Positions 738-59,900 of a DNA stretch of 64,000 nucleotides are shown here, in pieces. The notes below the pieces were generated by a model, which had not been told where the DNA came from, searched no databases, and saw only the letters and a program-made list of their open reading frames with translations. How positions within the stretch are numbered: position 1 is the first letter of the stretch; each line of letters begins with the position of its first letter. Source of the stretch: Candidatus Poribacteria bacterium (GTDB lineage Bacteria; Poribacteria; WGA-4E; JAJDTR01); NCBI GenBank assembly GCA_965222225.1, contig CBDCTK010000002.1, positions 4,096,001 through 4,160,000 of the forward strand, given 5' to 3'. The position numbers and the translations under genes were made by a program.

Positions 738-762
738 GATCAAACGAGTGAATAACGAATGC
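738..762 (+). repeat. Left part of the 35-bp GATC micro-element, followed by a GTAG hairpin repeat
   Basis: GATCAAACGAGTGAATAACGAATGC, preceded by the same AAGCCCCAGCGCGG flank as the copy at 34218. Confidence 0.6.
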
Positions 763-1069
763 CGTAGGTTGGGTTGAGTGATTAAATGCGAATCGCTATC
801 AAGCACAATGAGGTCCTGTTCTTCAATGAGGCAGACTTGAACCGAAATAGAACGAAACCCAACACCTCAATCCAACCCACGTGTTGATTATCAAGTTCGG
901 ATTCACTACACGTGGGAGTTTCCAGTTGTATTGAACCTCGAACGCCGTGTGAGTAATTTTTATGGCGTTGACGCCCTTCAACCTAACCTACATGGGACTG
1001 ATATAGCTACAAATTGTGGCAGACCCGCCCGAACGGTTACCCCTTATTCCTTCACAACCTACCGACATC

Positions 1070-1098
1070 TTGACATTGTCCCAAAGATTGAGTAGAAT
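1070..1098 (+). promoter_or_regulatory. Sigma70-type promoter pointing into IS1595 copy 1
   Basis: TTGACA-N17-TAGAAT. Confidence 0.55.
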
Positions 1099-1303
1099 CC
1101 CCAATGTTGGGAGTGTCCGCTGCAAAAAGCGCTGCCTCGCGACAAACTAACTTTCAATATTAGTCTACATTTATTATTAACTTTCGGAATTAGTAGCTTG
1201 TAGCTTTTAGACTGACGACAAACATAAAACTTGGTACCCTGTCGTAAATCTTTTCGTCACACGTAGATGTCCATAGTGACTATTCTTCTCGTAGGAGTTT
1301 GCT

Positions 1304-2158
1304 ATGGACATTTTGAATCTTATGAAAGAGTTTCCAAATCAAGAATCTTGTCTCAGATTTATAGAGGAAAAACGTTGGAAGGACGGTGTTTGCTGTATCC
1401 ACTGTGGCAGTGAAAAAGTTGGACGCAAGAACAAAAACGACATTACTACTGGTTGGAATTGCTACGATTGTGAATCTAGCTTTTCGGCTACAGCAGGAAC
1501 CATCTTCCATGGTACCAAGATACCTCTCCAGAAATGGTTTTTGGCTATCTCAATTCTTTCCAATGCCAAGAAAAGCATATCGAGTTGTCAGCTTGCTCGT
1601 GACTTGGACATGAATCAAAAGTCCGCTTGGTATATGGCAATGCGCCTCCGTGAGAAAATGAGTGATAGTGATGAATTGCTGAAAGGGATAGTTGAAGCGG
1701 ACGAAACCTATGTCGGCGGCAAACCCAGAGCAAAATCTAAGAGAGGTAGAGGCACAAATAAATCTCCCGTCATCGGCGTAGTCGAGAGAGGCGGTCGGGT
1801 GGTTGCTAAATTCATGAAGGTTCTATCTGGTGAAAATATCAGAGAATTCATCCTTAGCAATGTCTCACCCGATGAGTCTATTCTTATGACTGATGAATTT
1901 CGCTCTTACAATAGTCTGGACGAAGATATCGAAAGACATGTTATCCATCACCAAGAGAGATATGTTTCTGAGGACGGCGTAACTCACACCAACACCATCG
2001 AGTCGTTTTGGGCTTGTGTCAAGAGGTCATTCTACGGAACGCATCATCACTACAGCAAGAAGTGGCTGCCACTGTATATCATGGAGTCTTGCTGGAAATA
2101 TAATCGCAGAAAAGATGATGAGATTTTCATAAGATTTTTTGATGAATGCTTCACCTGA
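1304..2158 (+). CDS. IS1595-family DDE transposase
   Basis: N-terminal Zn ribbon (CIHC...CYDC), HTH region, catalytic motifs EADETY, MTDE, HTNTIES. Confidence 0.93.
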   Translation: MDILNLMKEFPNQESCLRFIEEKRWKDGVCCIHCGSEKVGRKNKNDITTGWNCYDCESSFSATAGTIFHGTKIPLQKWFLAISILSNAKKSISSCQLARDLDMNQKSAWYMAMRLREKMSDSDELLKGIVEADETYVGGKPRAKSKRGRGTNKSPVIGVVERGGRVVAKFMKVLSGENIREFILSNVSPDESILMTDEFRSYNSLDEDIERHVIHHQERYVSEDGVTHTNTIESFWACVKRSFYGTHHHYSKKWLPLYIMESCWKYNRRKDDEIFIRFFDECFT

Positions 2159-2176
2159 GCCACATGAATTGTTTGG

Positions 2177-2299
2177 CTATCGGTATATTCTGTCAACGAC
2201 AACATCATGGTGTGCTGAAAATCCCATAGTGTTGGAAATTAAAATCCCGCAGATAACCCGCAATGCTCCCGCGAGCATGTACAAACGCTTGGTCAACAT
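2177..2299 (-). CDS. Putative 40-aa passenger peptide inside IS1595
   Basis: ATG at 2299 with GGAGG 6 nt upstream; MLTKRLYMLAGALRVICGILISNTMGFSAHHDVVVDRIYR. Same ORF at 62262..62384. Confidence 0.3.
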   Translation of the reverse strand: MLTKRLYMLAGALRVICGILISNTMGFSAHHDVVVDRIYR

Positions 2300-2655
2300 G
2301 ATATGCCTCCATTTCTCTCTTATAGAGATGTATTTTAGTGTGAATCAAGATTCCGAACACTGTCTAAAATGATTGTACATTAAGAAGAGAAAAGCAAGCA
2401 AATCGACCAAAAAGCAGTTAACTACTAAGTCCCTATAAATTTGGAATTCCGCCGTGGATTGTAAGAGTATTTTGGGTGTTAATGATGTTTCCGTTGTCAG
2501 GAACCCCGATTATCGCATATGTTACTTTGTGAGCATTGATGCCTAAAGAGTATGAATTCCCAGAAAATTTCGATAGTCGAACCGACAGTCATTGACGCTA
2601 TCAATAGTTGTTGGAAACCGTGCCGTTTTTTTCCGTCAGTTAGACCTCGTGCTTG

Positions 2656-2850
2656 TTAGAGCATCCAATTCTTTAGATCTTTCCACAGCAGTGAACTCGG
2701 TCTGAGATATTCTCCTCCCAACTTTTCGTAAAATCGCCGATACGGATTTCTCGAATACATATTCACACCCATGCTATAGATCCCGTCTGTCCGAACCCAA
2801 TTCACCACCAGCTCAAACACATGATTGGTCGCAACTTTCTGCATGATACC
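2656..2850 (-). pseudogene. 3' remnant of a GNAT-like acetyltransferase
   Basis: NPYRRFYEKLGG resembles the GNAT C-terminal motif, and the segment resembles the end of the GNAT at 49229..49723. No N-terminal half. Confidence 0.4.
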
Positions 2851-4360: not shown

Positions 4361-4395
4361 GATCTCTATCGTGCACCTTATTCACTCGCATAATC
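4361..4395 (-). repeat. 35-bp GATC micro-element
   Basis: GATCTCTATCGTGCACCTTATTCACTCGCATAATC, inside a hairpin remnant. Confidence 0.6.
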
Positions 4396-11403: not shown

Positions 11404-11438
11404 GATTTCTATCGCACTCGCTATCCGCTCGCTTGATC
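11404..11438 (-). repeat. 35-bp GATC micro-element inside a GTAG hairpin
   Basis: GATTTCTATCGCACTCGCTATCCGCTCGCTTGATC flanked by GCGGGGCAAGGG and CCCGCCTAC. Confidence 0.75.
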
Positions 11439-17921: not shown

Positions 17922-17956
17922 GATCTCTGTCGCCCTTGCTGTTCACTCGGTTGATT
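17922..17956 (-). repeat. 35-bp GATC micro-element
   Basis: GATCTCTGTCGCCCTTGCTGTTCACTCGGTTGATT between GCGGTTGGAAAGA and GCCTACC. Confidence 0.7.
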
Positions 17957-20569: not shown

Positions 20570-21478
20570 TTAATCTTCCTCAGCGAGAAAGGTGTCGGGG
20601 TAATACCCGGCATCTGCATAATCAACAAATTTCACACCCGGGTATTTGTTCTTCCACTCTCCCGTGATGAAATCGTCAGTGTCGAATGGCCTAGCCTGCG
20701 ATCCTAATGAAGATACAATCATCCTGAATGTGACGACATTTCCATCTCCATTATCAATAATCTCGTCTGCCCATTGGACATACAGTACATCAGGGTAGAT
20801 AGGATAGACTTTGCCATCGTTGTGTCCGAAAGCGCCATCTATAAAACCGCGTTCTCCCTGATTCCAGAGTTTTATCAAGACACGGCATATCAACTCGTGT
20901 TCGGGCATGTCTCCCTTTTTGTAGCCGGGCATGCCTAACCAGACGGGTATGAGGTGTGAGGGAAAACCTTCGGGAACGGGTGGGAAATCGCTGTTTTCCT
21001 CGGCGGCTTCCTCATCAAGCGCCAGCAACACGGCTTCAAAATCTGTATCATCAAAGTCGTTGTCTTGGCTTAACGACTCTGTGCTGGCGAATTCGAGACT
21101 GGCGGTGGTTGTACTATCCGTTGTAGATTCATCACCGGACGCCTTCGGTGCATAGGCGCGCTTTGGTGGCTGCAAAGCACGCTTGAGGATCTCGGCACGC
21201 TCCGGATTAGGCTTAGGCAAGGCATAAACCGTCTTGGGTTCGACAGGTTGGCTCGCACGCCATACCAAGAATGTACCTAGCGCGACACAAAGCAACACAA
21301 CTAGAACGCCGGCATATAGGCAGTACTTCTTAACGAAAACCATATTAGCTATCGCCCTCCCTATTCGGTCGGTTGATCCTTTCTCACTGAGTGGAATTGA
21401 AGCACCGAGATCCATTAATGACAAATCAACGATTCTCCGCAAAGCAAAGAATCCGGTTTGAGATAACCATCCGTTCAT
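20570..21478 (-). CDS. Hypothetical membrane-anchored protein (real start probably MVFVKKY)
   Basis: Single N-terminal TM, acidic low-complexity linker, globular C-terminal domain (FPPVPEGFP, LIKLWNQG). Confidence 0.6.
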   Translation of the reverse strand: MNGWLSQTGFFALRRIVDLSLMDLGASIPLSEKGSTDRIGRAIANMVFVKKYCLYAGVLVVLLCVALGTFLVWRASQPVEPKTVYALPKPNPERAEILKRALQPPKRAYAPKASGDESTTDSTTTASLEFASTESLSQDNDFDDTDFEAVLLALDEEAAEENSDFPPVPEGFPSHLIPVWLGMPGYKKGDMPEHELICRVLIKLWNQGERGFIDGAFGHNDGKVYPIYPDVLYVQWADEIIDNGDGNVVTFRMIVSSLGSQARPFDTDDFITGEWKNKYPGVKFVDYADAGYYPDTFLAEED

Positions 21479-22589: not shown

Positions 22590-24557
22590 TTACCACCACG
22601 CGGTGAAGTTGTAGGTCTGGGTTTTAAACACAATTCCAAAAAGCGCCCAGAAACCCCCCACCGCAAATTCGCCCAAAATCATGCCGAAGAATAGGGGCAG
22701 CACTTGTCGATGCAACTTCAATCCGCCGTGTCTTAAAACCAGCCACTTAATCAGCCACGCCAGGAAGAACATCGACCAAAGATCCCGCATTCCGTATGTA
22801 CTGGATACTGCGTACCCCGCCGGGTGAAAGGGCCACCAGAGGAATTGCCACCGCATAACCATCAGGAAGATTCCGAACAACAGACCGTATGCAAAGAATC
22901 CCATGCCCATAAAATCTGTTGATGTCGGATAGGTCAACCATCCCTGTAAACGCTTGAACGGTTCTAGCCCGGCCCAAGTCATGGTAACGCCACTGTGTTG
23001 ATACGCCGAATCCAATACCGCCCAAAAGGCGACCACCGTGCCAAGCACCGTGGCAATCAGCATAGCGAGAAGGACACGACGGTTGTTCATCCGCGATTGA
23101 TCGGCAAGCTTGAATCCCTCAAGTTGATGCGGCATGACATCGCTGTAGTGGGCACGGGTGAGGAACCAGAAGAAAGATAGAACAGACAGGTTACCCGGGC
23201 CTAATTTTCGTGTGCCCATTGCACCTACCATGAGGTATTCCGGTCCTGCGAAGTGTAGGTCGTGGATAGGGGAGCCTACCTCGGCACGGATCCGGGTAAT
23301 GCCGATTTCCGTCATCAAGTACAGTGCGAAAAAGATTCCCGCTGCCCACATGGACATGCCCGCCTTCCAGCAGAACACCACTAGAAAAGCAAAGCCAAAT
23401 ATCAACCCAAGCACGGCGGTTCGATAACGAAGCGGCTCCGCAGCCCCAGCATCTCTGTGTTCTCGCGCACCAAGATGCAGTATCGATCTGAATAGTCGTG
23501 CCAAATGCCCTCGACCGATCCACAAGGCGATGACGAAAAGCGCGATGTACGCTCCCGTGCTCTGCTCCGGAAATTCCGGACGCTGGCGAAAGCCCATCGC
23601 GCTGCCCAAGACTAACTGTGCTTTCCAAAAGAAGAAAAAGAACCAGCAGGAGAAAGCTATGTCGAGCGGAATGAGAAAGATGAGCCCCAACATAAACGGA
23701 CGGAAGGTCAGCGCCATATGACCTATGGCATCCCACGGCTTTGTTGTAAATAGAGTGCCTAGATTAATCGGTTTGAACCGAAGGTATGGAATCGAGGGAA
23801 AGAAGAAGTGAAACCCGTTAATCATTCCGATTAGGCTTACCACGCAGAAACTAATCAAAAACAGCCTATTCGTGAACAGTTTGGATGCGGGGTTCGTCAT
23901 CTGGAAGGGGAGTTGAACAATCGGGAATGACAATCGCTCCCGATCCGACCACTGCTTGCGAATGATTATATTGACACAGATCATCACAAACATCAATACA
24001 CATATAAAGGCAGACCATATGAGTACCGGCGCTAGCCACGCTTCGATGTGTCGTGCGGTATAAAGGGACGATTCCGTTTTTACCCCTGTGATGTACCCAT
24101 CCAGAGTCCACTGGTCGGTGATGGCAAGCCATTTGGGAATGTAGCGGCCGAAGAGTTCGCTCCATTCGTTCTCCGGGGTGGCCAAGCCAAACGGGGCAGC
24201 CATAGTCGGCGGCAGGATTTGAATCATGCTGTGACCGACCAGCGCTGCCGACTGGCTCAGCATAATGTAGAGCGTGACCAGTTCGCCCTGGCGAAAAACC
24301 AGTTTGGGAGAGATTTTTCGCAGCGGGATGTTAAGAACGATTAGGATGAGTAGGTTGAAGACGACGTTGAAAAAGAGCGCAACGAGTGTCGAGTGGGCGG
24401 AATAGTAGATCGCTTCCATCTGCATGATCCAGTATGAGTTTAGCGGGATCAGCAGAATGGCGATCAGTATTGCGCGCCACGTCACAGCAGTGTCCTGATT
24501 TGGTTTGTCAAGGGTCATGTTCTGCGATTTTCCTCCGGCGTTCCGATAATCATCCAT
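22590..24557 (-). CDS. DUF6785/DUF6784-like polytopic membrane protein (putative transporter)
   Basis: Many TMs; RKQWSDRERLSFPIVQLP, TRIRAEVG, WWPFHPAGYA. Confidence 0.75.
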   Translation of the reverse strand: MDDYRNAGGKSQNMTLDKPNQDTAVTWRAILIAILLIPLNSYWIMQMEAIYYSAHSTLVALFFNVVFNLLILIVLNIPLRKISPKLVFRQGELVTLYIMLSQSAALVGHSMIQILPPTMAAPFGLATPENEWSELFGRYIPKWLAITDQWTLDGYITGVKTESSLYTARHIEAWLAPVLIWSAFICVLMFVMICVNIIIRKQWSDRERLSFPIVQLPFQMTNPASKLFTNRLFLISFCVVSLIGMINGFHFFFPSIPYLRFKPINLGTLFTTKPWDAIGHMALTFRPFMLGLIFLIPLDIAFSCWFFFFFWKAQLVLGSAMGFRQRPEFPEQSTGAYIALFVIALWIGRGHLARLFRSILHLGAREHRDAGAAEPLRYRTAVLGLIFGFAFLVVFCWKAGMSMWAAGIFFALYLMTEIGITRIRAEVGSPIHDLHFAGPEYLMVGAMGTRKLGPGNLSVLSFFWFLTRAHYSDVMPHQLEGFKLADQSRMNNRRVLLAMLIATVLGTVVAFWAVLDSAYQHSGVTMTWAGLEPFKRLQGWLTYPTSTDFMGMGFFAYGLLFGIFLMVMRWQFLWWPFHPAGYAVSSTYGMRDLWSMFFLAWLIKWLVLRHGGLKLHRQVLPLFFGMILGEFAVGGFWALFGIVFKTQTYNFTAWW

Positions 24558-24565
24558 TCTGAAAG

Positions 24566-24600
24566 GATCTCTATCGCCTTCGCTATCCGATCAGTTGATT
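24566..24600 (-). repeat. 35-bp GATC micro-element overlapping a stop codon
   Basis: GATCTCTATCGCCTTCGCTATCCGATCAGTTGATT; contains the TGA of 24591..25553. Confidence 0.75.
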
Positions 24601-25553: not shown

Positions 25554-25666
25554 TTGCTATATGCTCCTTCTTTATGGATTGTTTGGTAGTAACTCCCTGC
25601 GGTAGTTATTCGATTCTCCGCGTAATGGGGGCGATTGTCCGAAATTACTCCTGTCGTTCTCTACAA

Positions 25667-34130: not shown

Positions 34131-34253
34131 GATCAAGGGAACGAATAGTGACTGCGATAGAGATCCATGAAGGTATATAGAAACACCAAAACCCCGTGCA
34201 CATAAGCCCCAGCGCGGGATCAAACGAACGAATAGTGAGTGCGATAGAGATTC
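34131..34253 (+). repeat. Two nearby copies of the 35-bp GATC micro-element (34131..34165, 34218..34253)
   Basis: GATCAAGGGAACGAATAGTGACTGCGATAGAGATC and GATCAAACGAACGAATAGTGAGTGCGATAGAGATTC. Confidence 0.8.
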
Positions 34254-37026: not shown

Positions 37027-37080
37027 TGATGTGTGCGACGCGGTTGACACATCCGCTTATTTTCAAAATAGGAGGAACAG

Positions 37081-38058
37081 ATGTCATTCACAGCTAGACG
37101 ATTCTTGACTACAATGCTTGTCGTCTCCGTGTTAATCCAGATGCAGTTTGCTAAAAGCGGTTACGCCGCTCAGAGACCCAAGATTGCCTTCAGCTCTACG
37201 AGAGATGGAAACAGCGAAATCTACGTCATGGATATTGACGGACGTAATCATGTAAGACTAACGTATGATCCGGCGATTGACTATGATCCGTCGTGGTCTC
37301 CGAATGGCGATAGGATTGCGTTTGTCTCCAACAGAGACAATGGAGTTGAACAAATCTACGTCTTGGATTCTGACGGACGGAATTTGATGAGACTGACAAA
37401 CGAAGCGGTAAATCGGGAGCCGACGTGGTCTCCCACCGGAGAAAAGATTGCGTACACTCGCAGCAGAGGAGGACGTCAGGTTTGGGTAATGGACGACGAC
37501 GGACAAAACCAGACACGTTTGACTCAAATAGGCAAGAACCTTCACCCAGCCTGGTCGCCTGATGGGGTACGAATTGCCTTCGTATCCGTTAGGGACGGAA
37601 GGACCGGTATATACGCAATGGATAAGAACGGTAATAATCAGGAAAGAATCACCCTACACATGGTGATTCCGGGCCATCCATCGTGGTCTCCCGACGGTAA
37701 ATGGATTGCGTATGAATCTCTTGACGAAGAAAGCAAATTTCAAATCTTTCTCGTGAAAACCGATGGCAGCGGTCTTTCGAAAAGGCTAACACACAATCCA
37801 CCGAATAAATGGCGTCCTGCATGGTCCCCCGATGGCGACACGATTGCCTACGTGTCAGTAGAGCCCTTTCCCTTCCAAAATATGACGATTCACTTGATGA
37901 CTGCCCGTGGAAATCATCTTAAACAACTCAGTGAGGAGCACAATGGTTCGGATAACGATCCCGATTGGTATGCTCCGGTAGGATGGTCGGTGTCTCCCGC
38001 CGCAAACTTCATTACCATGTGGGGCGAGATTAAAAAGCCAACATCGGCTCTCCGTTGA
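37081..38058 (+). CDS. Secreted TolB-like PD40-repeat protein 2
   Basis: WSPDG repeats, C-terminal ITMWGEIK. Confidence 0.88.
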   Translation: MSFTARRFLTTMLVVSVLIQMQFAKSGYAAQRPKIAFSSTRDGNSEIYVMDIDGRNHVRLTYDPAIDYDPSWSPNGDRIAFVSNRDNGVEQIYVLDSDGRNLMRLTNEAVNREPTWSPTGEKIAYTRSRGGRQVWVMDDDGQNQTRLTQIGKNLHPAWSPDGVRIAFVSVRDGRTGIYAMDKNGNNQERITLHMVIPGHPSWSPDGKWIAYESLDEESKFQIFLVKTDGSGLSKRLTHNPPNKWRPAWSPDGDTIAYVSVEPFPFQNMTIHLMTARGNHLKQLSEEHNGSDNDPDWYAPVGWSVSPAANFITMWGEIKKPTSALR

Positions 38059-38108
38059 TGTGTACGGCGCGCTTGAAACTGCAGCTTTTTTTAAAAAAGG
38101 AGGAACAG

Positions 38109-39085
38109 ATGTCATTCAAAGCTAGACAACTGACGGGGACAGCGCTTGTCATCTCCCTGCTAATCCAGATGCACATTGCAGCAAGCAGTTACGCCTCTCG
38201 CAGAACCAAGATAGCCTTCACCTCTACGCGTGACGGGAATACTGAAATTTATGTCATGGATGGTGACGGGAGTAACCAGAGAAGAGTAACGGTAAATCCA
38301 GCAAGTGATGAATATCCGGCATGGTCTCCCGACGGCAAAAAGATTGCCTTTGTTTCCAATAGAAACAACGTAAACAAAGATCACAAGCAAATCTGGGTGA
38401 TCGACGCCGACGGGTAGAACCCGATTAGACTGACGGACGGGTTGGTGGACTCTTATCCGGATTGGTCGCCAGACGGCACGAAAATTGTGTACGACGCCCA
38501 TCTTCATCCAGAGGAACATCATGTAGCCCCCGCCGGGATTACTGTAATGGATGCGGATGGGAACAACAAGAGACTACTTACGGGTGAAGGCGCACATGCG
38601 TCGTGGTCGCCCGATGGAAAACGAATAGCATTTGTCTCCGGTAGAAATGAAAAAGTCAGTCACATTTTCGTAATGGATGCCGACGGACAGAATCAGATAG
38701 AGTTAACGCATGACTTCGTGCATAAACGTCTGCCATCATGGTCACCCGACGGGAAGCGCATCGCGTATGTGGGCGATAACGTGATTTGGGTGGTGGATAG
38801 CGACGGAGCGAACCAGAGGCAACTCACCAATATAATTACGGAAGAACACCCTACATGGTCACCGGACAGTGAATCCATTGCTTTTCACTCTTTTACAAGG
38901 GATCGTGGAACTGGGATTTACATGGTGGATGTAACTAACGGCGCTGTCGACGTTTTGCAAGTTGATCCCGCGTTCTTTAATCTCGACCCGATTGGCTCTA
39001 TCCCGGAGGACTCTCCGTTTCGCCGGAAGGTAGCCGGATTACAATTTGGGGCAGGATGAAGAGTACCGCGCTCAGCCTCCGGTGA
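38109..39085 (+). pseudogene. TolB-like PD40-repeat protein 3, pseudogene; close paralog of 39471..40457
   Basis: TAG at 38415..38417 where the paralog has AAG, and a one-base deletion at ~38990 (CCGATTGG versus CCGGATTGG). Confidence 0.88.
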
Positions 39086-39248
39086 GGGGTGCGCTTGGTC
39101 GGTGGCAGTTAACGTTGTCTGAACTGTGATTCATGAGAATACGGGATTACCTTGATTGTACGTGATTAGTTGCGAGTCATGAGGCGACTATTCCGCATCT
39201 TGCAGCCACTAGGAATTAGGGAAAAAACCTAGTCTATAAGAAAAAAGG

Positions 39249-39391
39249 GATGAACGGAGTGAACAGCGAGTGGGATGGACTATCGCACGGGATTTGCTAT
39301 CGATCAAGTGAGCGAAAAGCGAACGCGATAGCCAGTCTTGCTCCTTATTCAGTCGCTTGATCGATATTCACTCACTTGACCGATAGAGGTC
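39249..39391. repeat. Four-level nest of the 35-bp micro-element in mixed orientations
   Basis: Innermost forward copy 39302..39337, enclosed by two split reverse copies and one split forward copy. Confidence 0.65.
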
Positions 39392-39470
39392 CCTTGCGCT
39401 AAAAACTGTCGGTTGATGTCTAGAATATTGTAATTCGCATATTAATTTTGCTCTGACTAAGGAGGAAAAA

Positions 39471-40457
39471 ATGACATTCAAAGCTAGACGCTTGTCCGTG
39501 GCAGCGCGTGTCATGTCTCTGTTAATACAGATGCACATTGCAGAAAACGGTTACGCCTCTCGCAGAACCAAGATCGCCTTCTCCTCTATGCGTGACGGGA
39601 ATTTGGAAATTTATGTCATGGATGGCGACGGGAGAAACCAGAGAAGAGTAGCGGTAAATCCGGCAAGGGACGAATATCCGGCATGGTCTCCCGACGGGAA
39701 AAAGATTGCGTTTGAATCCAATCGAAACAATGTAAACAAAGATCACAGGCAAATTTGGGTGATCGACGCCGACGGGAAGAACCCGATTCGACTGACGGAC
39801 GGGTTGGTGGACACTCATCCGGATTGGTCGCCAGACGGCACGAAAATTGTGTACGACGCCTATCTTGTTCCAGAGGACCATAATTTAGCACCCGGTGGGA
39901 TTGCTGTAATGGATGCGGATGGGAACAACAAGAGGTTAGTTAAGAATGCAAGAGGCTCACAATCGTCCTGGTCGCCCGATGGAAAACGAATAGCATTTAT
40001 CGCCGGTAAAAATCCTGGTGACGACTCTCAAATTTACGTAATGGATGTCGACGGACGAAATCGGTTGCAGTTAACGCATGACTTTGTGCACAAACGTTTG
40101 CCATCATGGTCACACGACGGGAAGCGCATCGCGTATGGTGGCGACAACGTGATTTGGGTGGTGGATAGCGACGGAGAGAATCCGAGGCAACTCACGTGGC
40201 ATGTTACGGAAGAACACCCTACATGGTCACCGGACAGCGAATCCATCGCGTTTCACTCTTTTGGAAGGGATCCTGGAATTGTTGGGATTTACACGGTGGA
40301 TGTAACTATCGGCGCTGTCGACCCTTTGCCAAGTGATCCCGGCTTCCAGAATTACTATCCGGATTGGCTCTATCCCGGAGGACTCTCCGTTTCGCCGGAA
40401 GGTAGCCAGAATACAATTTGGGGCAGGATAAAGCAATTGGCGGTCAACCTGCGGTAG
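39471..40457 (+). CDS. Secreted TolB-like PD40-repeat protein 4
   Basis: WSPDG repeats, C-terminal NTIWGRIK; AAGGAGG RBS. Confidence 0.88.
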   Translation: MTFKARRLSVAARVMSLLIQMHIAENGYASRRTKIAFSSMRDGNLEIYVMDGDGRNQRRVAVNPARDEYPAWSPDGKKIAFESNRNNVNKDHRQIWVIDADGKNPIRLTDGLVDTHPDWSPDGTKIVYDAYLVPEDHNLAPGGIAVMDADGNNKRLVKNARGSQSSWSPDGKRIAFIAGKNPGDDSQIYVMDVDGRNRLQLTHDFVHKRLPSWSHDGKRIAYGGDNVIWVVDSDGENPRQLTWHVTEEHPTWSPDSESIAFHSFGRDPGIVGIYTVDVTIGAVDPLPSDPGFQNYYPDWLYPGGLSVSPEGSQNTIWGRIKQLAVNLR

Positions 40458-40592
40458 TTTGCACACCGAATCGGTGAAATCGAAGGGATTGCGGCGTGCC
40501 GCTCCGCTACCTAGTTCATTGGTGGTACATCCGTGCGGCAAGCTTACCACATTAAAGGAGGGAGAACATGCGAATCAAGTCGATAAATAAAC

Positions 40593-41392
40593 GAGAGTAT
40601 TCACACAAAGATAGATAAGGCAATCTTCTGATACCGACGGAAGACCTCTGGGTTGGTCAAAGCAGTCCATAACTTCATGGCATTGTCCACCATCTCAAGT
40701 TTCTTGGATACTATTTTGGTGCGGCGTGTGAATCGTCCAAGATGATGGCGTGTATTGCTGTTATCACGTTCGACTGTTGCTGTCCCTGATTTCCCGATGT
40801 GATGACGCTCCGCAGGAAGTACCTTGGCAAACGCTTCCCAATTGTCAGTGTAATACTGGCAATCACTTAAGTGTTTCACTTTGTCGAATAGCCGTCTGAA
40901 GGTATCAGCATCACGACCACCGATAACCCAGGCAACGGTTTTGCCTGTTTCACGAGAAACTGCTTTGTGAATCCATCTTTTGTTTTTTTTGACCCGATAA
41001 AATGCCACATCTCATCAAATTCCAATTCACGGGTATTGATTGGAATCTCAGGCTCCGACAACAGGGCTGCTTCCTTTGCAGGCCATTTTTGAACAGTACT
41101 TGGCGATACATTAAACAAGTTGGCAATAGTGCCGTAAGACGCTTTTGCAAGCGAGTAGAGAATTACTGCAAAAGCACGCTTGATGGTGGTTTGAGGGTTG
41201 GTTCTCTCGTCTCCCTCAACGAAATTATAACCGCACGTTTTACAACGGTATCGCTGTTTGGAACGAACGAATCCGTTTTTCGTGACTTCCGAACTTTGAC
41301 AGTTCTTACAGTTTGACATAATATCTCCTTCCTGACCTTTCTGGTTAGTTAGAAGAATTATATCATAAATCTATCTATATGGCAATACTCTC
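40593..41392 (-). mobile_element. IS1-family insertion sequence (800 bp) in codon 9 of PD40 gene 5
   Basis: Terminal IR GAGAGTATT at both ends; 8-bp TSD AAATAAAC / AAGTAAAC with one mismatch. Confidence 0.88.
40601..41319 (-). CDS. IS1-family transposase (InsA-like 40876..41319 + InsB-like 40601..41008) joined by a programmed -1 frameshift
   Basis: Zn finger CKNC...QRYRCKTC, EFDEMWHF, A8C slippery run at 40982..40990, YTDNW, ERDNSNTRH. Confidence 0.88.
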
Positions 41393-42362
41393 AAGTAAAC
41401 TTCTGTTTTTCATGGGACTATGCACATCCTTGGTGAGTGGGGAGCTATTGGTGGGAACCGGATTTACCTCGCACCACAAACCACAGATTGCATTCACTTC
41501 TATAAAAGATAGGAATGCTGAAATCTATGTGATGGATGCCGATGGAGAAAACCAAATCAGGTTAACAAAACATGTGGCGAGTGACCGTCATCCCTCGTGG
41601 TCTCCCGATGGGGAGCGGATTGCATTCACTTCCAATAGAATTAGTATTGGCGGTGAAATGTACGTGATGGATAGCGATGGAAAGAATCTGATTAGGTTAA
41701 CAAATGGAGAATGGGACACAAATCCAGCGTGGTCTCCTGACGGAAAAAAGATCGCCTTCGAGTCCTCTCCAGCGAAAGGTAATTCTGAGATATACGTGAT
41801 GGATGCCGATGGAAGAAATCAGACCCGACTAACAGATAGTCCGAGGTATGACGGACACCCGTCATGGTCGCCCGACGGTCAAAGGATTGCATTCGTATCG
41901 CAAAGGGGTGGTTTCAGGATTCAAATCTACGTGATGGACAGCAACGGCGAGAATCAGACGAGATTAACACACGATGGCGGGAATAAGCGTGAGCCCTCAT
42001 GGTCTCCTGACGGGCAAAGCATCGCTTTCATGCTCAACAATTTTGCCTCGATTCAAATCTACGTGATGGATAGCGACGGCAAGAATCGGACAAGGTTAAC
42101 AGACGGAAGGCACGACTGGAGTCCAGCTTGGTCGCCGGACGGCGAGATGATTGCATACGAGTCGTGGATAGGGGAAGACTTCCTTAGCAAAATCCACTTG
42201 ATGACTGCCGACGGAATGTACCTCAAACAACTCAGCGACTTGCACGAACGTGGAGATTACGATCCTGACTGGTTTGATCCTGCATCGCTTGGTGTGACTT
42301 CCGTAGGCATCACAATTACAATCTGGGGCAGGATCAAGAGATTAGCGTTGAACCTCCAGTAA
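41379..42362 (+). CDS. TolB-like PD40-repeat protein 5; original start at 40568 cut off by IS1
   Basis: Removing the IS and one TSD gives MRIKSINKLLFFMGL... in frame. The present ATG 41379 lies inside the IS end. C-terminal ITIWGRIK. Confidence 0.8.
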   Translation: MAILSSKLLFFMGLCTSLVSGELLVGTGFTSHHKPQIAFTSIKDRNAEIYVMDADGENQIRLTKHVASDRHPSWSPDGERIAFTSNRISIGGEMYVMDSDGKNLIRLTNGEWDTNPAWSPDGKKIAFESSPAKGNSEIYVMDADGRNQTRLTDSPRYDGHPSWSPDGQRIAFVSQRGGFRIQIYVMDSNGENQTRLTHDGGNKREPSWSPDGQSIAFMLNNFASIQIYVMDSDGKNRTRLTDGRHDWSPAWSPDGEMIAYESWIGEDFLSKIHLMTADGMYLKQLSDLHERGDYDPDWFDPASLGVTSVGITITIWGRIKRLALNLQ

Positions 42363-42542
42363 ATCGCACATTTACTCGACGTATTGCATTGTTTGAAACT
42401 GATTTAATTCAAATGAAAAATGTGCTCATGCGGATTAGAACCGATTGGCTGCCAGATTTATAGCCATTTTACCATCATATTTACACATATTAAAGAGAGA
42501 AATTGTCGATTTGAAGATTGTTACGACAAGCCTACTGTAGGG

Positions 42543-42577
42543 GATCAAAGGAGCGGATAGCGACTGCGATAGAGATC
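42543..42577 (+). repeat. 35-bp GATC micro-element
   Basis: GATCAAAGGAGCGGATAGCGACTGCGATAGAGATC directly after GTAGGG. Confidence 0.8.
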
Positions 42578-42713
42578 TTCTCCAGGCCGAGACTTCATAT
42601 CGCGAGCAGAACTCGCTCCTACAGAAGACGCGCAGTAAATTGCACTACTACAAACTGACCAACGTAAATCCTATATGTAAAATTCTTAGTTATAGCGACT
42701 ATAGTCGAAACCC

Positions 42714-43934
42714 CTAAACCGCTTTGCTTTCGAGCCAGTCCTTTGTCACCTCGATTCCGAATCCGGGCGCGTCGCTCGGCGTAAGGTAACCCCCTTTTAT
42801 GACGGGTGTCCCCGGTAAAACGACCTGTTCTTCGAGTGGCACTCCCGGCGGTGACACACCCTCCGAGCGCTCACCCCACTGTATGGCGGGCATTGCGTAC
42901 GAAACATGCTGCCCGTAAGGGTAATTCATGCCGGCATGGCTGATGACACTCAGACCGTGCGCTTCGGCGATGTGGCAAATCCGTACCAGCGCCGTGACGC
43001 CGCCGACCCACTGAATATCCGGCTGCAATATGTCGACCAATCCTTTCCCCGCCGCCAATGCGAATGGGTGAATAGTGTACCAATGTTCGCCGGTGGCGAG
43101 AATCTGCGACGGCACCCGCTCTCGCACTTTGAAGTAGCTGTCCAAATCTTCCGGCAGCAGGTAGTCTTCGAGCCACTTCAGGCGGTATGGTTTCAACGCT
43201 TCGACGAGCCTCACGACGTATTCCACATTAAACGACATCCACGCATCCAGCATGAGTTCAACATCATCGCCTATCTGCTCCCGAGTCCTTGCAACCAACT
43301 CTTCCGTCGCTCGGATTCCTTCGATTCCCGATTCAGGCCCATGTCGCGCGAAAAGTTTGACGGCTTTAAATCCCAGTTCCAAGAACCACGCGATACTATT
43401 CTCCGTACCGTATGATATATCCGTATTGCTGGCGTAGCAGAATATTTTGTCCTTTTGGGGTCCGCCGAGAAGTTCGTAGACAGGGCGCTTGAGTAATTTG
43501 CCTTTCAGGTCCCATAAGGCGTTGTCCACGGCGCTGATAGCGTAGCTAGCCAACCCCGCGCTATGGTACGGCGCAGAACCTCGACGCATCAAATCCCATA
43601 TTTTCTCGGTGGCAACACAGTTTTGGCCGGTAAGCAAAGGAGCAAGTTGGTCGTTTATGATGCTGAGTACCGGGCCGCTATTCGTTGTCATTCCCAGTCC
43701 CCAGGTTCCGTCCTCGGCAGTCACAACGCAGGCGAGGCGCGTCCAATCGGCTGTCCAATCACTTCTCTTGAATTCGGAGTATCGCGCCATCGGACTGGTG
43801 AACCCGTCGGTCTCAACGCGGGGAACACGAGGTTCGGTCTTGGACTCGGGGGTAAGGTTAACTGCAACAGCACGAATATCTTTTATCTTCACTTCTGTTG
43901 CTCCTTTATGAATGGAGAATGGCAACGTTAGCAA
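42714..43934 (-). CDS. L-rhamnonate dehydratase-like enolase-superfamily enzyme (start probably GTG ~43891)
   Basis: SAVDNALWDLKGK, LMLDAWM, WLED, ATGEH, LQPDIQWVGG; paralog of 12640..13815. Confidence 0.88.
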   Translation of the reverse strand: MLTLPFSIHKGATEVKIKDIRAVAVNLTPESKTEPRVPRVETDGFTSPMARYSEFKRSDWTADWTRLACVVTAEDGTWGLGMTTNSGPVLSIINDQLAPLLTGQNCVATEKIWDLMRRGSAPYHSAGLASYAISAVDNALWDLKGKLLKRPVYELLGGPQKDKIFCYASNTDISYGTENSIAWFLELGFKAVKLFARHGPESGIEGIRATEELVARTREQIGDDVELMLDAWMSFNVEYVVRLVEALKPYRLKWLEDYLLPEDLDSYFKVRERVPSQILATGEHWYTIHPFALAAGKGLVDILQPDIQWVGGVTALVRICHIAEAHGLSVISHAGMNYPYGQHVSYAMPAIQWGERSEGVSPPGVPLEEQVVLPGTPVIKGGYLTPSDAPGFGIEVTKDWLESKAV

Positions 43935-46510: not shown

Positions 46511-46537
46511 TGAGTGTTCATTATAGAGGAGTTTGAC

Positions 46538-47149
46538 ATGCAAAGGCAGGAAGCACTCTCGAAACTGTCAGAGCTTATCAACCAAGACCTGCGTTTTCTT
46601 GCGAATCAATATGAAGTAACGGTTTTCAAGGGAGACAAACCAAATAAGGGTTGGGCATGGCACGTTCTTGAGCGTCATCTTAACTTACCAATCAACTCTG
46701 CTCAAGCACCAAACTTTGGTTCTTGGGAATTGAAGGTAGTTCCTCCGAAGTATCTAAAAAGTGGAAAGTTGACAATCAAGGAAACAATGGCAATTACGAT
46801 GATTGATGCCTACAATGTTGAACATACCGATTTCCAAGATAGCCATCTGTTCACCAAACTCAGGAAACTAATAGTTGCTGCCAGAATCTGGGAGAGTCAG
46901 CAGGAAGAACGATCTGTGCTTCATATTGTGACAACCTTTGACCTTGACAATCCCAAGATATACAGTCAAATTAAAGCGGATTATGATTTAGTCAGAGAGA
47001 CAATCCGCACGAAAGGTTTTTCGGCTTTGACCGGAAAAATGGGGGTATATATTCAACCAAGGACAAAGGGGCCTGGACATGGTAGTATGTCACGAGCGTT
47101 TTACGCAAGAACCACCTTCCTTAAGCAGTTCATTTTTCCGTCGCTTTGA
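46538..47149 (+). CDS. MutH/Sau3AI-family endonuclease
   Basis: NKGWAxHVLE, PNF...ELK, ETMAIT, YIQPRTKG and RAFY follow the MutH pattern. GAGGAG precedes ATG 46538. Confidence 0.8.
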   Translation: MQRQEALSKLSELINQDLRFLANQYEVTVFKGDKPNKGWAWHVLERHLNLPINSAQAPNFGSWELKVVPPKYLKSGKLTIKETMAITMIDAYNVEHTDFQDSHLFTKLRKLIVAARIWESQQEERSVLHIVTTFDLDNPKIYSQIKADYDLVRETIRTKGFSALTGKMGVYIQPRTKGPGHGSMSRAFYARTTFLKQFIFPSL

Positions 47150-47263: not shown

Positions 47264-49222
47264 ATGGACACAAAACCAACCTTCCAGACCATTACCCAGA
47301 GTAAAACTTCAACTCCAGTAGATCCTGTAGTAGCGGCGGAGGTTGGTCTAGAGAGGGGCAAAATCGGCAAACTGCATCTGGAGCGGAATGGCGCAGCCAT
47401 CCCACCCTTGTCAACACCGATTTTGTACCCCGTAGTTTCATTCATGACCGGTTCGACGCCGCGCGGCGGGGGTTTGTGGAAGTACCTACTTCGAGATTTC
47501 ATGAAGAACGATGTGCCGATGTTGTCGCAAGTCCTGCACTTTCTGGATTTCCCTATCAACGGTAAGAGTTTGGCGAAATGGCGAAGTAAAACCGTTCGTG
47601 AGTGGTATCGTGAGGTCAATGGACCATACGAAGCGCCGCTCCTGCTCGATTCCGGCGGATTCAAACTGCTTTATAACACGGGGCTAGATCTCTCTGAGTT
47701 CGGCATTAACGCAGAAACGGAAGCGGATGATATACTCGCACTCCAGGACGACATGGGTGGGGACATGATTGCTTCTCTGGACTACCCGCTTCCACCGGGG
47801 CTGGATCGATCGGAAGCCGAAAGGCGGATGAACCGCAGCCTGAAAAATGCCTTTAGGGTAGCGGAATGCATCGCCGATCGCCGTAACCCGCCATATCTGT
47901 ACATCTGTTGTCATGGACAATCCCGGGTTGACATTGAAGAGTACGTCCAGAAGGTTTTTGACAGGCTTCTGGGAGTCTTACCATCGTTTGGACTTGCGGT
48001 TGGCTCTCTCGTACCGCTGCGAGGAAAAAAGGATTCGGAAGTATTGGAGCGGATATTGGGAGTGGTAAACGGAATACCGGAATCGGAGCGACATCGGACG
48101 CCGATTCACGCCTTCGGCGTTTCAGGTGAACTTGCCCCCATACTCGCTTACATGGGAATTGATAGCTTTGACAGCACAAGTTACATTCAAGCTGCTCGCG
48201 GCCTCAACTATTCCCATCCCGAAACGCGGCGGAAGCAGAAAATTATGGAGTTAGACGAAACGGTGTGCACTTGCCGCATCTGCCGCGAGGTGTCGCTTGA
48301 TGAAATGCACCTTGCCCTGTCGGATGCAGTAAGTTATAGGAAGACTTCAACCGGGAAGTACAAGAGCGAATACTATGCCGCCATCGCTTTGCACAACTTT
48401 GAGATGGAAGCGGGGTTACTTTCCCGTATGAAAGAAGCTATTGAGAGCGAAGACTCGCTTGAAGAGTTGGTTCGTCACGCGCAGGTAGGACGAGGCATCA
48501 ATAGAGCAGTAGGCTGGCTGCTTGAGAATGATGAGATTTTTGCCAGTAAGATGGCGAAAACTGTCTTTGAGGCCACCGATTCACGGGGCAAATCCGCCCT
48601 TCCAATTGGGCGGAATCCGTATCAACTCGAACTCTTCACGGGATCCTTGACAGCGGAAGGAAATGGCGAGGAATCGCGATCAATCTCGCTCAATTATACA
48701 CCTGATTCCTTTTCCATTCCCGATGATTATGCTCCCCCTAAGGACAAAGACGTACTGCTGGTTATTCCGTGTGCCGGGAAAAAGCCGTATTCACTGTCGC
48801 GCACACACGCTATTGTCAATACCAAACTTCAGACGGCCTTCGGTGAAGCGGGAACTTCCATCCACAGAATTACCCTTTCGGGACTTTACGGACCCGTGCC
48901 GGAGGAATATGAATCTGAAGAAGCTGTCCTCCGATACGATTTTCAGTTGTCACCGAGAAATACCGCGAAAATACAGCTCGGTGCGGATCGGCTCTGCGCC
49001 TATCTGGAGAAGTATGCCAATCACTACAAGCTGATTGTCGGATACGCGACAAGCCAAGCTTATCGCAAAGTGTTTGAACTCACCCGATCCAGACGGTCAG
49101 ACTTTGTTTTGCTGCCGACGAAACCGAAACAGAATCGACTCACCGAGTTTTTCCGGCACGTTCACCTTGATGAACTCGTTGAGGTTTTGTCAACTGTAGC
49201 GCAACCACTGAGCAAAGAATAA
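47264..49222 (+). CDS. TGT/DpdA-like guanine transglycosylase fused to an ArcS/DUF5591-like C-terminal domain
   Basis: TPILYPV, LDSGGF, SLDYP, HAFG, GIDSFDS, Zn site CTCRIC...LHN. C-terminal VIPCAGKKPYSLSRTH and LSGLYGPVPEEYE...YDF. Confidence 0.85.
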   Translation: MDTKPTFQTITQSKTSTPVDPVVAAEVGLERGKIGKLHLERNGAAIPPLSTPILYPVVSFMTGSTPRGGGLWKYLLRDFMKNDVPMLSQVLHFLDFPINGKSLAKWRSKTVREWYREVNGPYEAPLLLDSGGFKLLYNTGLDLSEFGINAETEADDILALQDDMGGDMIASLDYPLPPGLDRSEAERRMNRSLKNAFRVAECIADRRNPPYLYICCHGQSRVDIEEYVQKVFDRLLGVLPSFGLAVGSLVPLRGKKDSEVLERILGVVNGIPESERHRTPIHAFGVSGELAPILAYMGIDSFDSTSYIQAARGLNYSHPETRRKQKIMELDETVCTCRICREVSLDEMHLALSDAVSYRKTSTGKYKSEYYAAIALHNFEMEAGLLSRMKEAIESEDSLEELVRHAQVGRGINRAVGWLLENDEIFASKMAKTVFEATDSRGKSALPIGRNPYQLELFTGSLTAEGNGEESRSISLNYTPDSFSIPDDYAPPKDKDVLLVIPCAGKKPYSLSRTHAIVNTKLQTAFGEAGTSIHRITLSGLYGPVPEEYESEEAVLRYDFQLSPRNTAKIQLGADRLCAYLEKYANHYKLIVGYATSQAYRKVFELTRSRRSDFVLLPTKPKQNRLTEFFRHVHLDELVEVLSTVAQPLSKE

Positions 49223-58209: not shown

Positions 58210-58436
58210 ATTGGTATCTCCTTTGATGTTATGTATGCCAACAATCGTGTTGACCGAATCATTTTGAGACTGCTTTCGTAAGTCCTATCTATCTAGCAAA
58301 TTACTGCATCCAAAATATCGATCCAATATAGCACGGTGGTGGGTTGCTGTCAATCACATAAAAAACGTAAATCGGAGCAATTGTCTCTATTCATGTGTGG
58401 AAATCCGTTATCTTGCACTCCTAATTCTCCGTAGGG

Positions 58437-58505
58437 GATCAAGTGAGTGAATAGCGAATGATCAACTGAGCGAACAGCGAAGGCGATAGAGTTCCCATAG
58501 AGATC
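58437..58505 (+). repeat. Two-level nest of the 35-bp micro-element inside a GTAG hairpin
   Basis: Inner copy 58460..58494 splits the outer copy into 58437..58459 and 58495..58505. Confidence 0.75.
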
Positions 58506-58659
58506 CCTCCTCGCCCGCTCCCTTTCGGCAGAAATCCCTATATCCAACCACGCCCAGTCCATTGCGAACCACAATCCTGCGAGGCTATATGTAGGGTGCG
58601 CACCGCGCACCAGCCTTTTCGTCGTACTCGCGCGATAGAGTTCCTACCAGCCTTCCTAT

Positions 58660-58835
58660 GCACCCGTAGGAGCGGCCTCGCGGTCTCGCTTGCGCAAGCC
58701 GGAGCGTCTGTCGTGAATATGCAGGTTGCGGGGCGGTGGAAATCCCCTCGGATGCCGGCGCATTATGCCCGCGCCGAGTTGGCAGAGCAAGGAGCAATTG
58801 CACGCTTCAAATACGGGAAAGACGGTGGGGGGTAG
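58660..58835 (+). pseudogene. C-terminal remnant of a Cre-like tyrosine recombinase
   Basis: RSGLAVSLAQAGASVVNMQVAGRWKSPRMPAHYAR contains the box II R...GRW...Y pattern. Confidence 0.7.
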
Positions 58836-59435
58836 CGAACCGGGAAGGATAGTTGAGGGAAAGTACATATGTAGGGTGGGCACTGCCCACCATTTTTCTT
58901 AGGTGCGATTAACCGCCTGTTTAAGCCCGTGGGTTGGGATGAACGAAACCGAGAATTCCGGTGTCGACACACCAAACTTCCTCAAACTGGCTGACCCGTC
59001 GGATAGCATCAAGGAAAGAGTGAAACCCAACTTCACCCCCTACGTCATCGGACACCTCCCCGGCAAACGTTGGGTTTCACTAGGATCACCGAGAATTTAT
59101 TCCGAATAGCGTCCCACAATCGTCGTGTCATGCTTGGTGTTTTTGCTTGTTACCGTTCAACCCAACCTACGCGCTTCCCACCATCTCTTATGGGGTACGA
59201 TAGCCGATCCCGATAGAAATCCCTCAAGCAAACCAGATCGTGGGGGCGAGGTCTCCTCGCCCATTCTGTTGCGCACCCTAATCCCGTGCGGTAGAGCGTC
59301 CATTCCGCCAACCCCACACCTCCGCCACACCAATAAACGGCACATGCTCCTCCCACCGCCGACTCAACCCGCCGTTCCTAATCCACGTAATCCAATAATC
59401 CATCAAGCGAGTGAATAGATCGTGTGACCGAAAAG

Positions 59436-59589
59436 GATCAAGGGCGCGAATAGCGACCGCGATAGAGATCCGCCATGTCTGTCGCAAACCGATAGCCCCG
59501 TCTTGCACTCCAGCTGAGAACAAGCGACTGAATGAGGAGTGATCGAACCAATGGACACTGAATACGATAGGGAATCCTGATAGTATTTC
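59436..59589 (+). repeat. Micro-element copy (59436..59470) and a degenerate two-level nest (59518..59589)
   Basis: GATCAAGGGCGCGAATAGCGACCGCGATAGAGATC; inner degenerate copy 59541..59576. Confidence 0.65.
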
Positions 59590-59728
59590 CCACTGCGATG
59601 GAGTTCTTAAAATGAAGTTAAACGTCGCGCCTTGCACTCCAGCGGAGTGCGATGTCGATAGAACTGCAATGCGTACAATCTTCGCGCTCCAAAGGAGCGC
59701 AATGTCGGTAGGATGGCGATTCGATAAG

Positions 59729-59900
59729 GATCAAACGAGTGAACAGTGGTCTCCGTAGGGGCGCGATCAACTGACTAGATAAGGAAGGATCAAGTAAGTG
59801 AATAACGATCAACCGACTGATTAGGGAGGACGATAGTAGATTCTGCGCGATAGAATTCCTATAGAGATCCCCCCGCGCCCAATCCCGCGCGATAGATTTC
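59729..59900 (+). repeat. Four-level nest of the micro-element including a split GTAG hairpin
   Basis: Four GATCAA left ends (59729, 59765, 59788, 59807) followed by four right ends (ending 59843, 59858, 59869, 59900). Confidence 0.7.

Follow-up and report, generated by a model that had tools for sequence, protein, structure and literature searches.

The closest precedent for the DNA described here is given by SDR4-6, small dispersed repeats (SDRs) of the Nostocaceae. These elements of 21-27 nucleotides (nt), reportedly described by Elhai and co-workers in 2008, are said to lie in or near other repeats and each other, to vary in position between relatives and to have been taken as non-autonomous mobile DNA of unknown mechanism. 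According to excerpts of PMC5861425, SDR5 may insert in the GATC-containing palindrome HIP1 (GCGATCGC), and no SDR-like repeat was found outside the Nostocaceae. A short dispersed element was now examined in an uncultured Candidatus Poribacteria, a sponge symbiont. The analysed stretch, called the window, comprises 64,000 nt (C2:4096001-4160000) within a 5.70-Mb genome of two contigs (G000). The element is a hairpin-bearing unit of about 35-38 nt, which stands in other repeats, in gene ends and in its own copies, and is present or absent at the same site in different sister species.

Like the SDRs, the element is very short, non-coding, dispersed, nested and positionally polymorphic between relatives. 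A further likeness concerns GATC: the target HIP1 named for SDR5 in those excerpts contains this tetranucleotide, and the present element is GATC-bounded and often replaces GCG. It differs in its length of 35-38 nt against the 21-27 nt given for SDRs and in its occurrence in another phylum; this comparison was made by description. Furthermore, the Poribacteria element shows a covarying hairpin, a replication-strand bias and exchange of hairpin cassettes in place. In excerpts of the literature on small dispersed repeats, Poribacteria repeats and nested elements of repetitive extragenic palindromes (REPs) and REP-associated tyrosine transposases (RAYTs), no description of the family was found. 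This agrees with an earlier note on the window, made from its sequence, in which the element was not recognised as a described family; the cyanobacterial SDRs are a conceptual precedent.

Occurrence and anatomy of the element

About 20 full or split copies in the window had been claimed in the earlier note. Its consensus, searched with up to three mismatches, matched the window seven times and 100 shuffles of the window not once. With a pattern of 26 fixed positions (up to six mismatches) 11 full copies were detected. Head plus hairpin (14 fixed positions, up to two mismatches) was found 19 times, compared with 0 matches for the reversed pattern used as control. The claimed number is therefore borne out, and a copy or fragment was found at every position that had been listed. 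One full copy, at 21344, was absent from that list.

Genome-wide, as the note had proposed to count, the full pattern gave 1,097 copies (603 on the plus and 494 on the minus strand) against 0 for the reversed pattern. A profile built from seven window copies gave 767 matches at E<1e-3. With about 37 nt each, the 1,097 copies make up about 0.7% of the genome. In a crude map, long open reading frames (ORFs) cover 82% of the genome yet hold only 159 of these copies; 86% of the copies lie outside. GATC sites as such are not over-represented, with 19,093 in the genome versus roughly 22,000 expected at 50% GC.

In a survey that covered 151 genomes from the phylum, with up to two mismatches allowed in the pattern (reversed-pattern control 0 in every genome), the element was abundant in one genus and sparse in three others. 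Each of the nine genomes from the window's genus holds 386-922 copies, and the sister genus holds 3. In genus g4, which belongs to another family, 20-30 copies were counted in each of four genomes, and 2 of 20 genomes of g6 carry 18 copies and 1 copy, respectively. No copy was detected in 100 genomes of family f2 or in the remaining families of the survey, and the viral contigs searched gave 0 matches. An exact-pattern scan with one genome per prokaryotic species yielded at least 111 stretches, and all matches listed are from metagenome-assembled genomes (MAGs) of Candidatus Poribacteria. The element is present in at least nine other Poribacteria assemblies. An adapter or assembly artefact is ruled out because the element recurs in independent assemblies, long-read chromosomes as well as short-read MAGs. 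The proposed search of Rfam (release 15) matched no family: 0 matches were obtained over the window at the gathering score and 0 at E up to 1 over 34050-34450.

The element consists of a head, (G)ATCAA, a 17-nt hairpin, the motif GCGATAG and a variable end, which is usually AGATCC. In 524 ungapped copies the positions G1 A2 T3 C4 A5 A6, G9 A10, G13, A15 T16 A17, G20 A21 and G24 to G30 (GCGATAG) are near-invariant; positions 7, 8, 11, 12, 18, 19, 22 and 23 are variable. Among all position pairs the four with the highest mutual information are exactly 11-19, 8-22, 7-23 and 12-18. In 737 distinct copies 94.2% of the stem cells are paired versus 59.4% (sd 0.7) in shuffles, and none of 500 shuffles reached the observed value. 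A control with slid partners gave 21-56%. Other genomes supplied an independent set, 74 copies of which 50 are distinct; here 96.5% pairing versus 64.8% was determined, again with 0 of 500 shuffles reaching it, and all four stem pairs are changed on both sides in this set. In total, 232 stem haplotypes occur among 687 copies, of which 579 are fully paired.

Only one strand of the element, reading GATCAA..., is under selection to fold. Among the stem cells of the 737 distinct copies 355 G.T/T.G stand against 56 A.C/C.A; therefore the GATCAA-reading strand is the one selected. The hairpin also contains invariant oppositions, G9 A10 facing G20 A21 and G13 facing A17 (three G.A), and a loop of the form G-R-A-T-A. 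With the three oppositions the covarying stem has seven positions. These G.A oppositions lie mostly (73-79%) in a Y-GA-R context. Such a context favours sheared G.A pairs, which may thus be formed in the element hairpin.

Fixed ends with a variable middle had been described in the earlier note. The variable middle was found again as four covarying base pairs. Fixity did not hold for the 3' end: the conserved unit reaches GCGATAG, and the last 5-9 nt vary even where the first 29 nt are identical. Tails on such copies are AGATC, AAATC, AAGATC, CAAATC, TAAATC, TCTTGTAG and CTATATGTAG. The statement that the element is not a palindrome was corrected as well, as it contains the internal hairpin and a 6-nt terminal inverted repeat, GGGATC/GATCCC. 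Outside the window, at C2:1578373-1578562, five 38-nt units form a head-to-tail array with a different hairpin in each unit and the variant tail GCGATAGTCTTGTAG. This array looks like the product of serial insertion behind the GTAG that ends each unit's tail.

Empty and filled sites, host repeats and nesting

Orthologous sites with and without the element were compared between species. For 27 of 111 element loci listed from other species both flanks are present in G000. In these intervals, filled in other species, G000 holds a copy in 8 and none in 19. The copy at 24566 overlaps a dehydrogenase gene and supplies its stop codon, so that the C-terminus reads ..NQIN in place of ..NQIQNG. This site was aligned with nine sister species. 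It is empty in G002 and G004 (.. AATCAAATA followed directly by CAGAATGGATGA) and in G003 (.. AATCAGATC followed by CAAAATGGATGA). In G000 35 nt stand there behind ..ATC, with CTTT in addition at the right junction, and in G005 the site is doubly filled, the second copy being nested in the first. A remnant, GATCAACT(G/A)A, was found in G006 and G007, and other fillings in G001, G008 and G009.

At locus L045 a REP of the GTAG type is intact in G000 (GTAGGTGC GG TTTCCAACCGCACC) and filled in another species. Furthermore, a repeat resembling an insertion sequence (IS) is empty at the site TTTTGTGA, AT, AAGG in 24 of 24 copies in G000, 4 of 4 in G003 and 1 of 1 in G009. In G005 the element stands at one site of this repeat in 9 of 9 copies. 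The IS-like repeat lies outside the window at C2:3040520-3041116 and in 23 other places in G000; these are near-identical to each other and about 94% identical to a G005 copy. No target duplication was observed at the clean empty/filled junctions (24566, L045, IS); 1-3 target bases are lost instead. Both alleles hence occur at orthologous sites. Together with the high turnover (a copy in 8 of 27 intervals) they show that the element is mobile, as proposed in the earlier note. The further classification there as non-autonomous fits because the element is without coding capacity. Contigs of four public runs were also placed on window positions 24000-43900, where the repeats drew contigs from the whole genome. 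The sole element-sized joints, 39302 to 39340/39341, have sides of 21-23 letters and are probably from other copies.

The nine IS copies of G005 have identical junctions and two different hairpins, CCGACTGAATAGGGAGG in seven and GGGAGCGAATAGCGAGT in two, which differ at 6 of 17 positions. The two copies with the odd hairpin belong to sublineages whose flanks are 89.6% alike, yet each has a counterpart with the common hairpin to which it is 97.8-99.1% alike. The two hairpins are spread over IS sublineages; therefore the hairpin cassette of a resident copy was exchanged in place on at least one occasion, through a short conversion tract or through a new copy that overwrote the old one.

Host sites of the element are two REP families, its own copies, IS and gene ends. 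A GTAG stands upstream at a fixed offset in 205 copies; by distance, 114, 46, 45 and 26 copies have it at 9, 8, 16 or 4 nt, respectively. The earlier claim that most copies sit in GTAG-type hairpins is right in that the GTAG hosts are real. It is too narrow in that the second REP family (GCCCCAGNGGGGC), the element itself, IS and a gene end are used too. A REP that belongs to a RAYT of 157 amino acids (aa) has the form AAGCCCCAG(A/C)GGGGCGA(C/A/T)AGGTGTATAG at 24 homologous loci across the phylum. In another spelling, AAGCCCCAGNGGGGCGA(C/A/T)AGGTG, it is likewise conserved across the phylum. It forms arrays upstream of the RAYT gene and inverted arrays downstream, even in genomes without the element. 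In the window's genus its filled form reads ...CAGCGGGG[ATCAA...ATCC]C(G)ACAGG. In G000, 70 RAYT-associated REPs are filled and about 40-46 are empty; more than half are occupied. These 70 filled REPs, the fixed offset of GTAG at 205 copies and the REP of L045, intact here and filled elsewhere, confirm the statement that the element parasitises REPs. The copies in the window are given below.

738..762, plus strand: split copy with head and hairpin only (positions 1-25), directly behind the RAYT-type REP GCCCCAGCG at 726; a GTAG-type repeat stands in place of the tail.
4361..4395, minus strand: full copy, diverged, with 4 of 26 fixed positions different.
11404..11438, minus strand: full copy within a composite repeat of ~218 nt, which recurs elsewhere in G000 and in G005; a GTAGGC tag lies upstream in sense orientation.
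17922..17956, minus strand: full copy with 4 mismatches, within a repeat of ~175 nt that G005 also has.
21344..21378, minus strand: full copy with the variant tail GCGATAGCTAAT.
24566..24600, minus strand: full copy overlapping the 3' end of the gene for a 2-hydroxyacid dehydrogenase (minus strand, 24591-25553).
34131..34165, plus strand: full copy behind the left arm of the GTGGGGAATAACGA repeat; G002 has the intact hairpin GTAGGAATAATGATCGTTATTCCCTAC at this place.
34218..34252, plus strand: full copy inside a RAYT-type REP, with AAGCCCCAGCGCGG before and CCGGCAGGT behind the element.
39249..39391, both strands: nest of four fragments, namely a sense head at 39249, antisense heads at 39342-39362 and 39361-39381, and a sense copy (39302-39336) inserted in an antisense copy at the step CTATCG^C.
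42543..42577, plus strand: full consensus copy directly behind GTAGGG.
58437..58505, plus strand: nested pair inside a GTAG REP, with 58437 as the outer member; the outer head (58437-58459) is followed by a complete inner copy (58460-58494), CC and the outer tail ATAGAGATC to 58505, directly after which the right arm of the REP, CCTCCTCGCCC, stands.
59436..59470, plus strand: full copy.
59518..59538, plus strand: degenerate head plus hairpin, with 2 of 14 fixed positions different.
59729..59900, plus strand: multiply nested copies with four heads (59729, 59765, 59788, 59807), then three tails (59847, 59858, 59889).

Nesting as in the last rows is frequent in the whole genome. Among 909 copies with up to four mismatches 262 stand behind a truncated sense copy and 23 behind a truncated antisense copy, 285 in total. 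The outer copy is broken before a G, at position 23 (119 copies), 19 (36), 17 (35), 12 (35), 10 (14) or 18 (13). Behind the inner copy, which is complete, come two or three pyrimidines, and the outer copy continues from a point 2-4 nt downstream. Antisense nesting was found at one single step, G24-C25, in 23 of 23 cases.

A site selected by the host, i.e. a protein-binding or RNA-stability hairpin that is spread mainly by duplication of larger repeats and gene conversion, is a very improbable explanation of these findings. It would account for the pairing kept in 84% of the copies despite 232 stem haplotypes. The many copies carried in larger composite repeats and the cassette conversion described above would suit it as well. 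However, the positions are not conserved between species (8 of 27), and no bias to gene direction or intergenic class was observed: 352 copies are co-directional with flanking genes and 300 opposed, and the shares in tandem, divergent and convergent spacers follow spacer length. The unit also stands alone with clean junctions in IS, gene end and REP. The 285 self-nested insertions and the lack of an Rfam match speak against a host site, too.

Replication strand, junctions and candidate enzymes

The orientation of the copies follows GC skew, not transcription, which points to DNA replication rather than RNA. With the skew taken over 50 kb, 192 plus and 322 minus copies were counted where it is above 0, and 411 plus and 169 minus copies where it is 0 or below (Fisher p about 5e-29; one genome). 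Over 97 bins of 50 kb skew and orientation gave a Spearman rho of -0.51 (p 7e-8). Taken separately, the nested copies, those behind GTAG, those in the RAYT REP and the remainder all show the bias, and one GTAG REP family is biased in the same direction as the element. The test refers to clustered copies along a chromosome whose skew changes its sign at least six times. Genes have the usual polarity, with 1,288 on the plus versus 791 on the minus strand where the skew is positive; therefore it is the C-rich strand on which the folding strand is over-represented. If the skew is read in the usual way, this places the strand able to fold mostly on the lagging nascent strand and leading-strand template. 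As to the contig itself, the at least six sign changes in the 5.6 Mb of C2 indicate many rearrangements or assembly joins, and they limit any replichore map.

The element inserts after G, in or beside hairpin-forming DNA. At every site the next bases of the target equal the first bases of the element at the left junction. This overlap is G at the nested positions 10, 17 and 23, GA at 12 and 19 and in the IS, and ATC at 24566. The right junctions carry a variable Y-rich filler (CC, CCC, CTC, CTTT, TTC) with 1-3 target bases lost; filler and loss differ from site to site, and no exact rule is derivable.

Junctions of this kind could arise without a transposase by copying, in a template switch or by target-primed synthesis. 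Synthesis would stall at a hairpin with a nascent 3' end of G, GA or GATC, and this end would pair with that of a free antisense copy (RNA or single-stranded DNA, ssDNA); about 37 nt would be copied, a few bases added, and synthesis would return to the target a few bases downstream. Both junctions agree with this course, the left one by its overlap of G, GA or ATC at nested sites, in the IS and at 24566, the right one by its variable Y-rich filler and the 1-3 lost bases. Polymerases pause at hairpins, and the targets are of this kind; the sense strand is found preferentially on the strand made discontinuously, and a resident hairpin was replaced in place. Nevertheless, we regard such a copy-in as unlikely. 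It requires a free template with fixed ends, and no source was found. The sole gene resembling a reverse transcriptase (RT) was found in two g6 genomes without the element and, within the genus, in 6 of 9 genomes, several times with stops. The excess of G.T points to selection of the sense strand, here the product instead of the template, and an overlap of one base (G) is weak evidence of pairing.

Five candidate genes were profiled against the element, four over the 151 genomes and the fifth within the genus only. The earlier note, in which mobilisation by an HUH/RAYT-type or RT-dependent mechanism was considered possible, had proposed a search for copies flanking a transposase, RAYT or RT gene; no gene specifically tied to the element resulted from it. 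The occurrence of the single RVT_1-like ORF is out of step with that of the element: within the genus 6 of 9 genomes have it, with stops in four, and in g4 1 of 4. It was also detected in the two g6 genomes that showed no element copy, and the RT hypothesis was rejected. This ORF lies at C2:4499560-4501572 (670 aa, 26.8 bits, below the Pfam cut-off); it is intact in G000 and has stops in four sister genomes. RAYTs of the classical 240-aa class (g1 4 of 8, g4 0 of 4, f2 41 of 100) are not correlated with the element either, nor are the other RAYT paralogues. Two broken classical RAYT genes were observed outside the window, at C2:3560250-3560540 and 3088862-3089300. One is without its N-terminal half and has an element copy abutting, the other has an internal stop. 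A GATC enzyme was considered in the form of the MutH-family endonuclease of the window and discarded, as its occurrence (g1 2 of 8, f2 38 of 100) is not correlated with that of the element. The gene for this endonuclease (PF02976, 211 aa, 46514-47149) directly follows an N6/N4 DNA methylase gene (PF01555, 45641-46510), and the two probably are a GATC-type restriction-modification pair.

The sharp bounds of the distribution, with 386-922 copies in one genus, 3 in the sister genus and 0 in 100 f2 genomes, would be explained by a dedicated, so far unrecognised enzyme specific to the many-copy genus. It might be a recombinase or nuclease acting on folded single strands as integron integrases do on attC. 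That none of the five candidates matches the distribution would be understandable then. The proposal nonetheless rests solely on absence of evidence; no gene stands regularly beside the copies and viral contigs gave 0 matches. Thus, we consider such an enzyme rather improbable.

The preferred, though tentative, reading is that the active form is ssDNA which is cut and joined in trans by a host HUH nuclease of the Y1/RAYT kind, and we give it nearly an even chance. Five matches to Y1_Tnp (PF01797) were found in the genome. The best is the 157-aa protein with HIH and RYIxNQ motifs, an IS200-like RAYT which in G000 is bracketed by inverted element copies. It is present in 8 of 8 sister genomes, and no other Y1 gene was detected in every one of the nine genomes of the genus. 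Its REP and the element have GCGA(Y)AG behind the hairpin in common. According to excerpts of PMC3333891, TnpA_REP of E. coli needs ssDNA and a stem mismatch; its cleavage, specific for no more than a dinucleotide, extends over hundreds of bases, and the enzyme also performs strand transfer and has been proposed as a source of variant and tandem units. Element variants, tandem copies and ragged junctions resemble products of such low-specificity cleavage, as far as these are described there (PMC3333891). By this reading the element would move as ssDNA, and a host Y1/RAYT nuclease would cut and join it in trans. The likeliest candidate for this nuclease would be the IS200-like RAYT of all nine genomes, in view of the shared GCGA(Y)AG. 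If its cleavage specificity were as low as that of the E. coli enzyme, ragged 3' ends, small target losses, tandem arrays and swapped cassettes could have their source there.

Several results weigh against a host nuclease of this kind. None of the five candidate genes follows the distribution of the element, and no gene is regularly found beside the copies. The IS200-like RAYT is present in 64 of 100 f2 genomes, which showed no element copy, and was not found in 2 of 4 g4 genomes carrying 29-30 copies. As an enzyme dedicated to the element it was rejected, since its flanking inverted copies are explained by insertion in its true REPs (24 homologous loci). The classical RAYT paralogues at 23 loci in the genus are without consistent flanking by the element. 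The nearest-neighbour fold energy of single copies is no better than that of shuffles (z -1.1 to +1.1). The ragged right junctions with Y-rich filler and the left overlap of G, GA or GATC would also fit copy-in by a polymerase. In addition, the strand bias derives from one genome with its repeated changes of skew sign, and the bias is opposite to the rule described for IS608/ISDra2. In excerpts on these IS200/IS605 elements the active strand is placed on the lagging-strand template; the fold-competent strand of the present element is on the C-rich strand.

Comparison with the REP systems gives likenesses and differences. The element is ~35 nt long and extragenic, and it has hundreds of copies, an imperfect hairpin with obligatory mismatches, conserved single-stranded flanks and one functional strand, as have REPs and REPINs (REP doublets). 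Besides, GCGA(Y)AG is common to it and the REP of the local RAYT. Unlike REPs, it is without a GT(A/G)G head; its head is (G)ATCAA, and the upstream GTAG (at -9, -8, -16, -4) belongs to the host repeat. Inverted doublets of fixed spacing, as in REPINs, are missing: neighbours mostly share a strand, and no peak was seen in the spacings of copies on opposite strands. No RAYT gene is natively flanked by the element as in a REPtron, whereas true REPs flank the 157-aa RAYT in 24 of 24 loci. Finally, the element is a guest inside REPs and nests in itself.

For HUH elements, the comparison included palindrome-associated transposable elements (PATEs, derived from IS200/IS605) and the rolling-circle elements IS91 and Helitrons. 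With these the element shares the absence of a terminal duplication, insertion next to a short fixed sequence, a one-strand hairpin, a link to replication, and ends of unequal precision, sharp at 5' and looser at 3'. It differs from IS200/IS605 in one central hairpin instead of one per end and in being ten-fold or more smaller. Only a G is fixed on its 5' side, not a tetra- or pentanucleotide, and target bases are lost. Miniature inverted-repeat transposable elements (MITEs) are similarly short, non-coding and of high copy number, and the 6-nt terminal inverted repeats are a further likeness. In contrast to MITEs of the DDE type the element is without target-site duplication, far shorter, and structurally selected on one strand only. 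Regular spacing as in CRISPR was not observed; the sole array consists of 38-nt units head to tail without spacers.

A wider picture would be that of a ~37-nt hairpin spreading without its own transposase, a hyperparasite of REPs that enters stalled or folded ssDNA at the replication fork and persists as a pool of mutually overwriting stem cassettes. This picture is possible, if doubtful. If true, no smaller active mobile DNA would be on record for bacteria other than cyanobacteria, and the route of copy-in, by hijack of a polymerase or nuclease, would be unlike every characterised transposition pathway.

Significance and further features of the window

The element is one of the smallest mobile DNAs seen in bacteria and lies below the sizes at which transposition is normally sought. 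The mechanism is unsolved even for the cyanobacterial SDR precedent of 2008. The Poribacteria family is a better-defined case: it has about a thousand copies per genome, nine sister species have been sequenced, empty and filled sites are clean, and the hairpin covaries strongly. It also offers a replication-strand bias, observable cassette replacement and named candidate nucleases, and biochemistry with oligonucleotides is directly possible. REPs are usually seen as end-points of RAYT activity; the present results show that they can themselves be occupied by a further layer of selfish DNA. Both intergenic regions and the C-terminus of at least one protein are altered by the element in this sponge symbiont, which is abundant and uncultured. 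Much of the intergenic DNA that is "unalignable" between these species is accounted for by the element, which is of use for annotation.

Some other features of the window were observed. Two IS1595-family transposase genes (1304-2158 and 61389-62243) lie ~60 kb apart; PF12762 and a zinc ribbon were found in the first copy, which was scanned. A stretch of 300 nt at their start is identical (1182-1481 = 61267-61566). Five adjacent ORFs at 36004-42362 consist of coding repeats with a spacing of ~126-147 nt and 19-20 units; gene-sized duplications among them are 71-89% alike. Behind the methylase/endonuclease pair an ORF of 652 aa (47264-49222) with a tRNA-guanine transglycosylase domain and DUF5591 is located.

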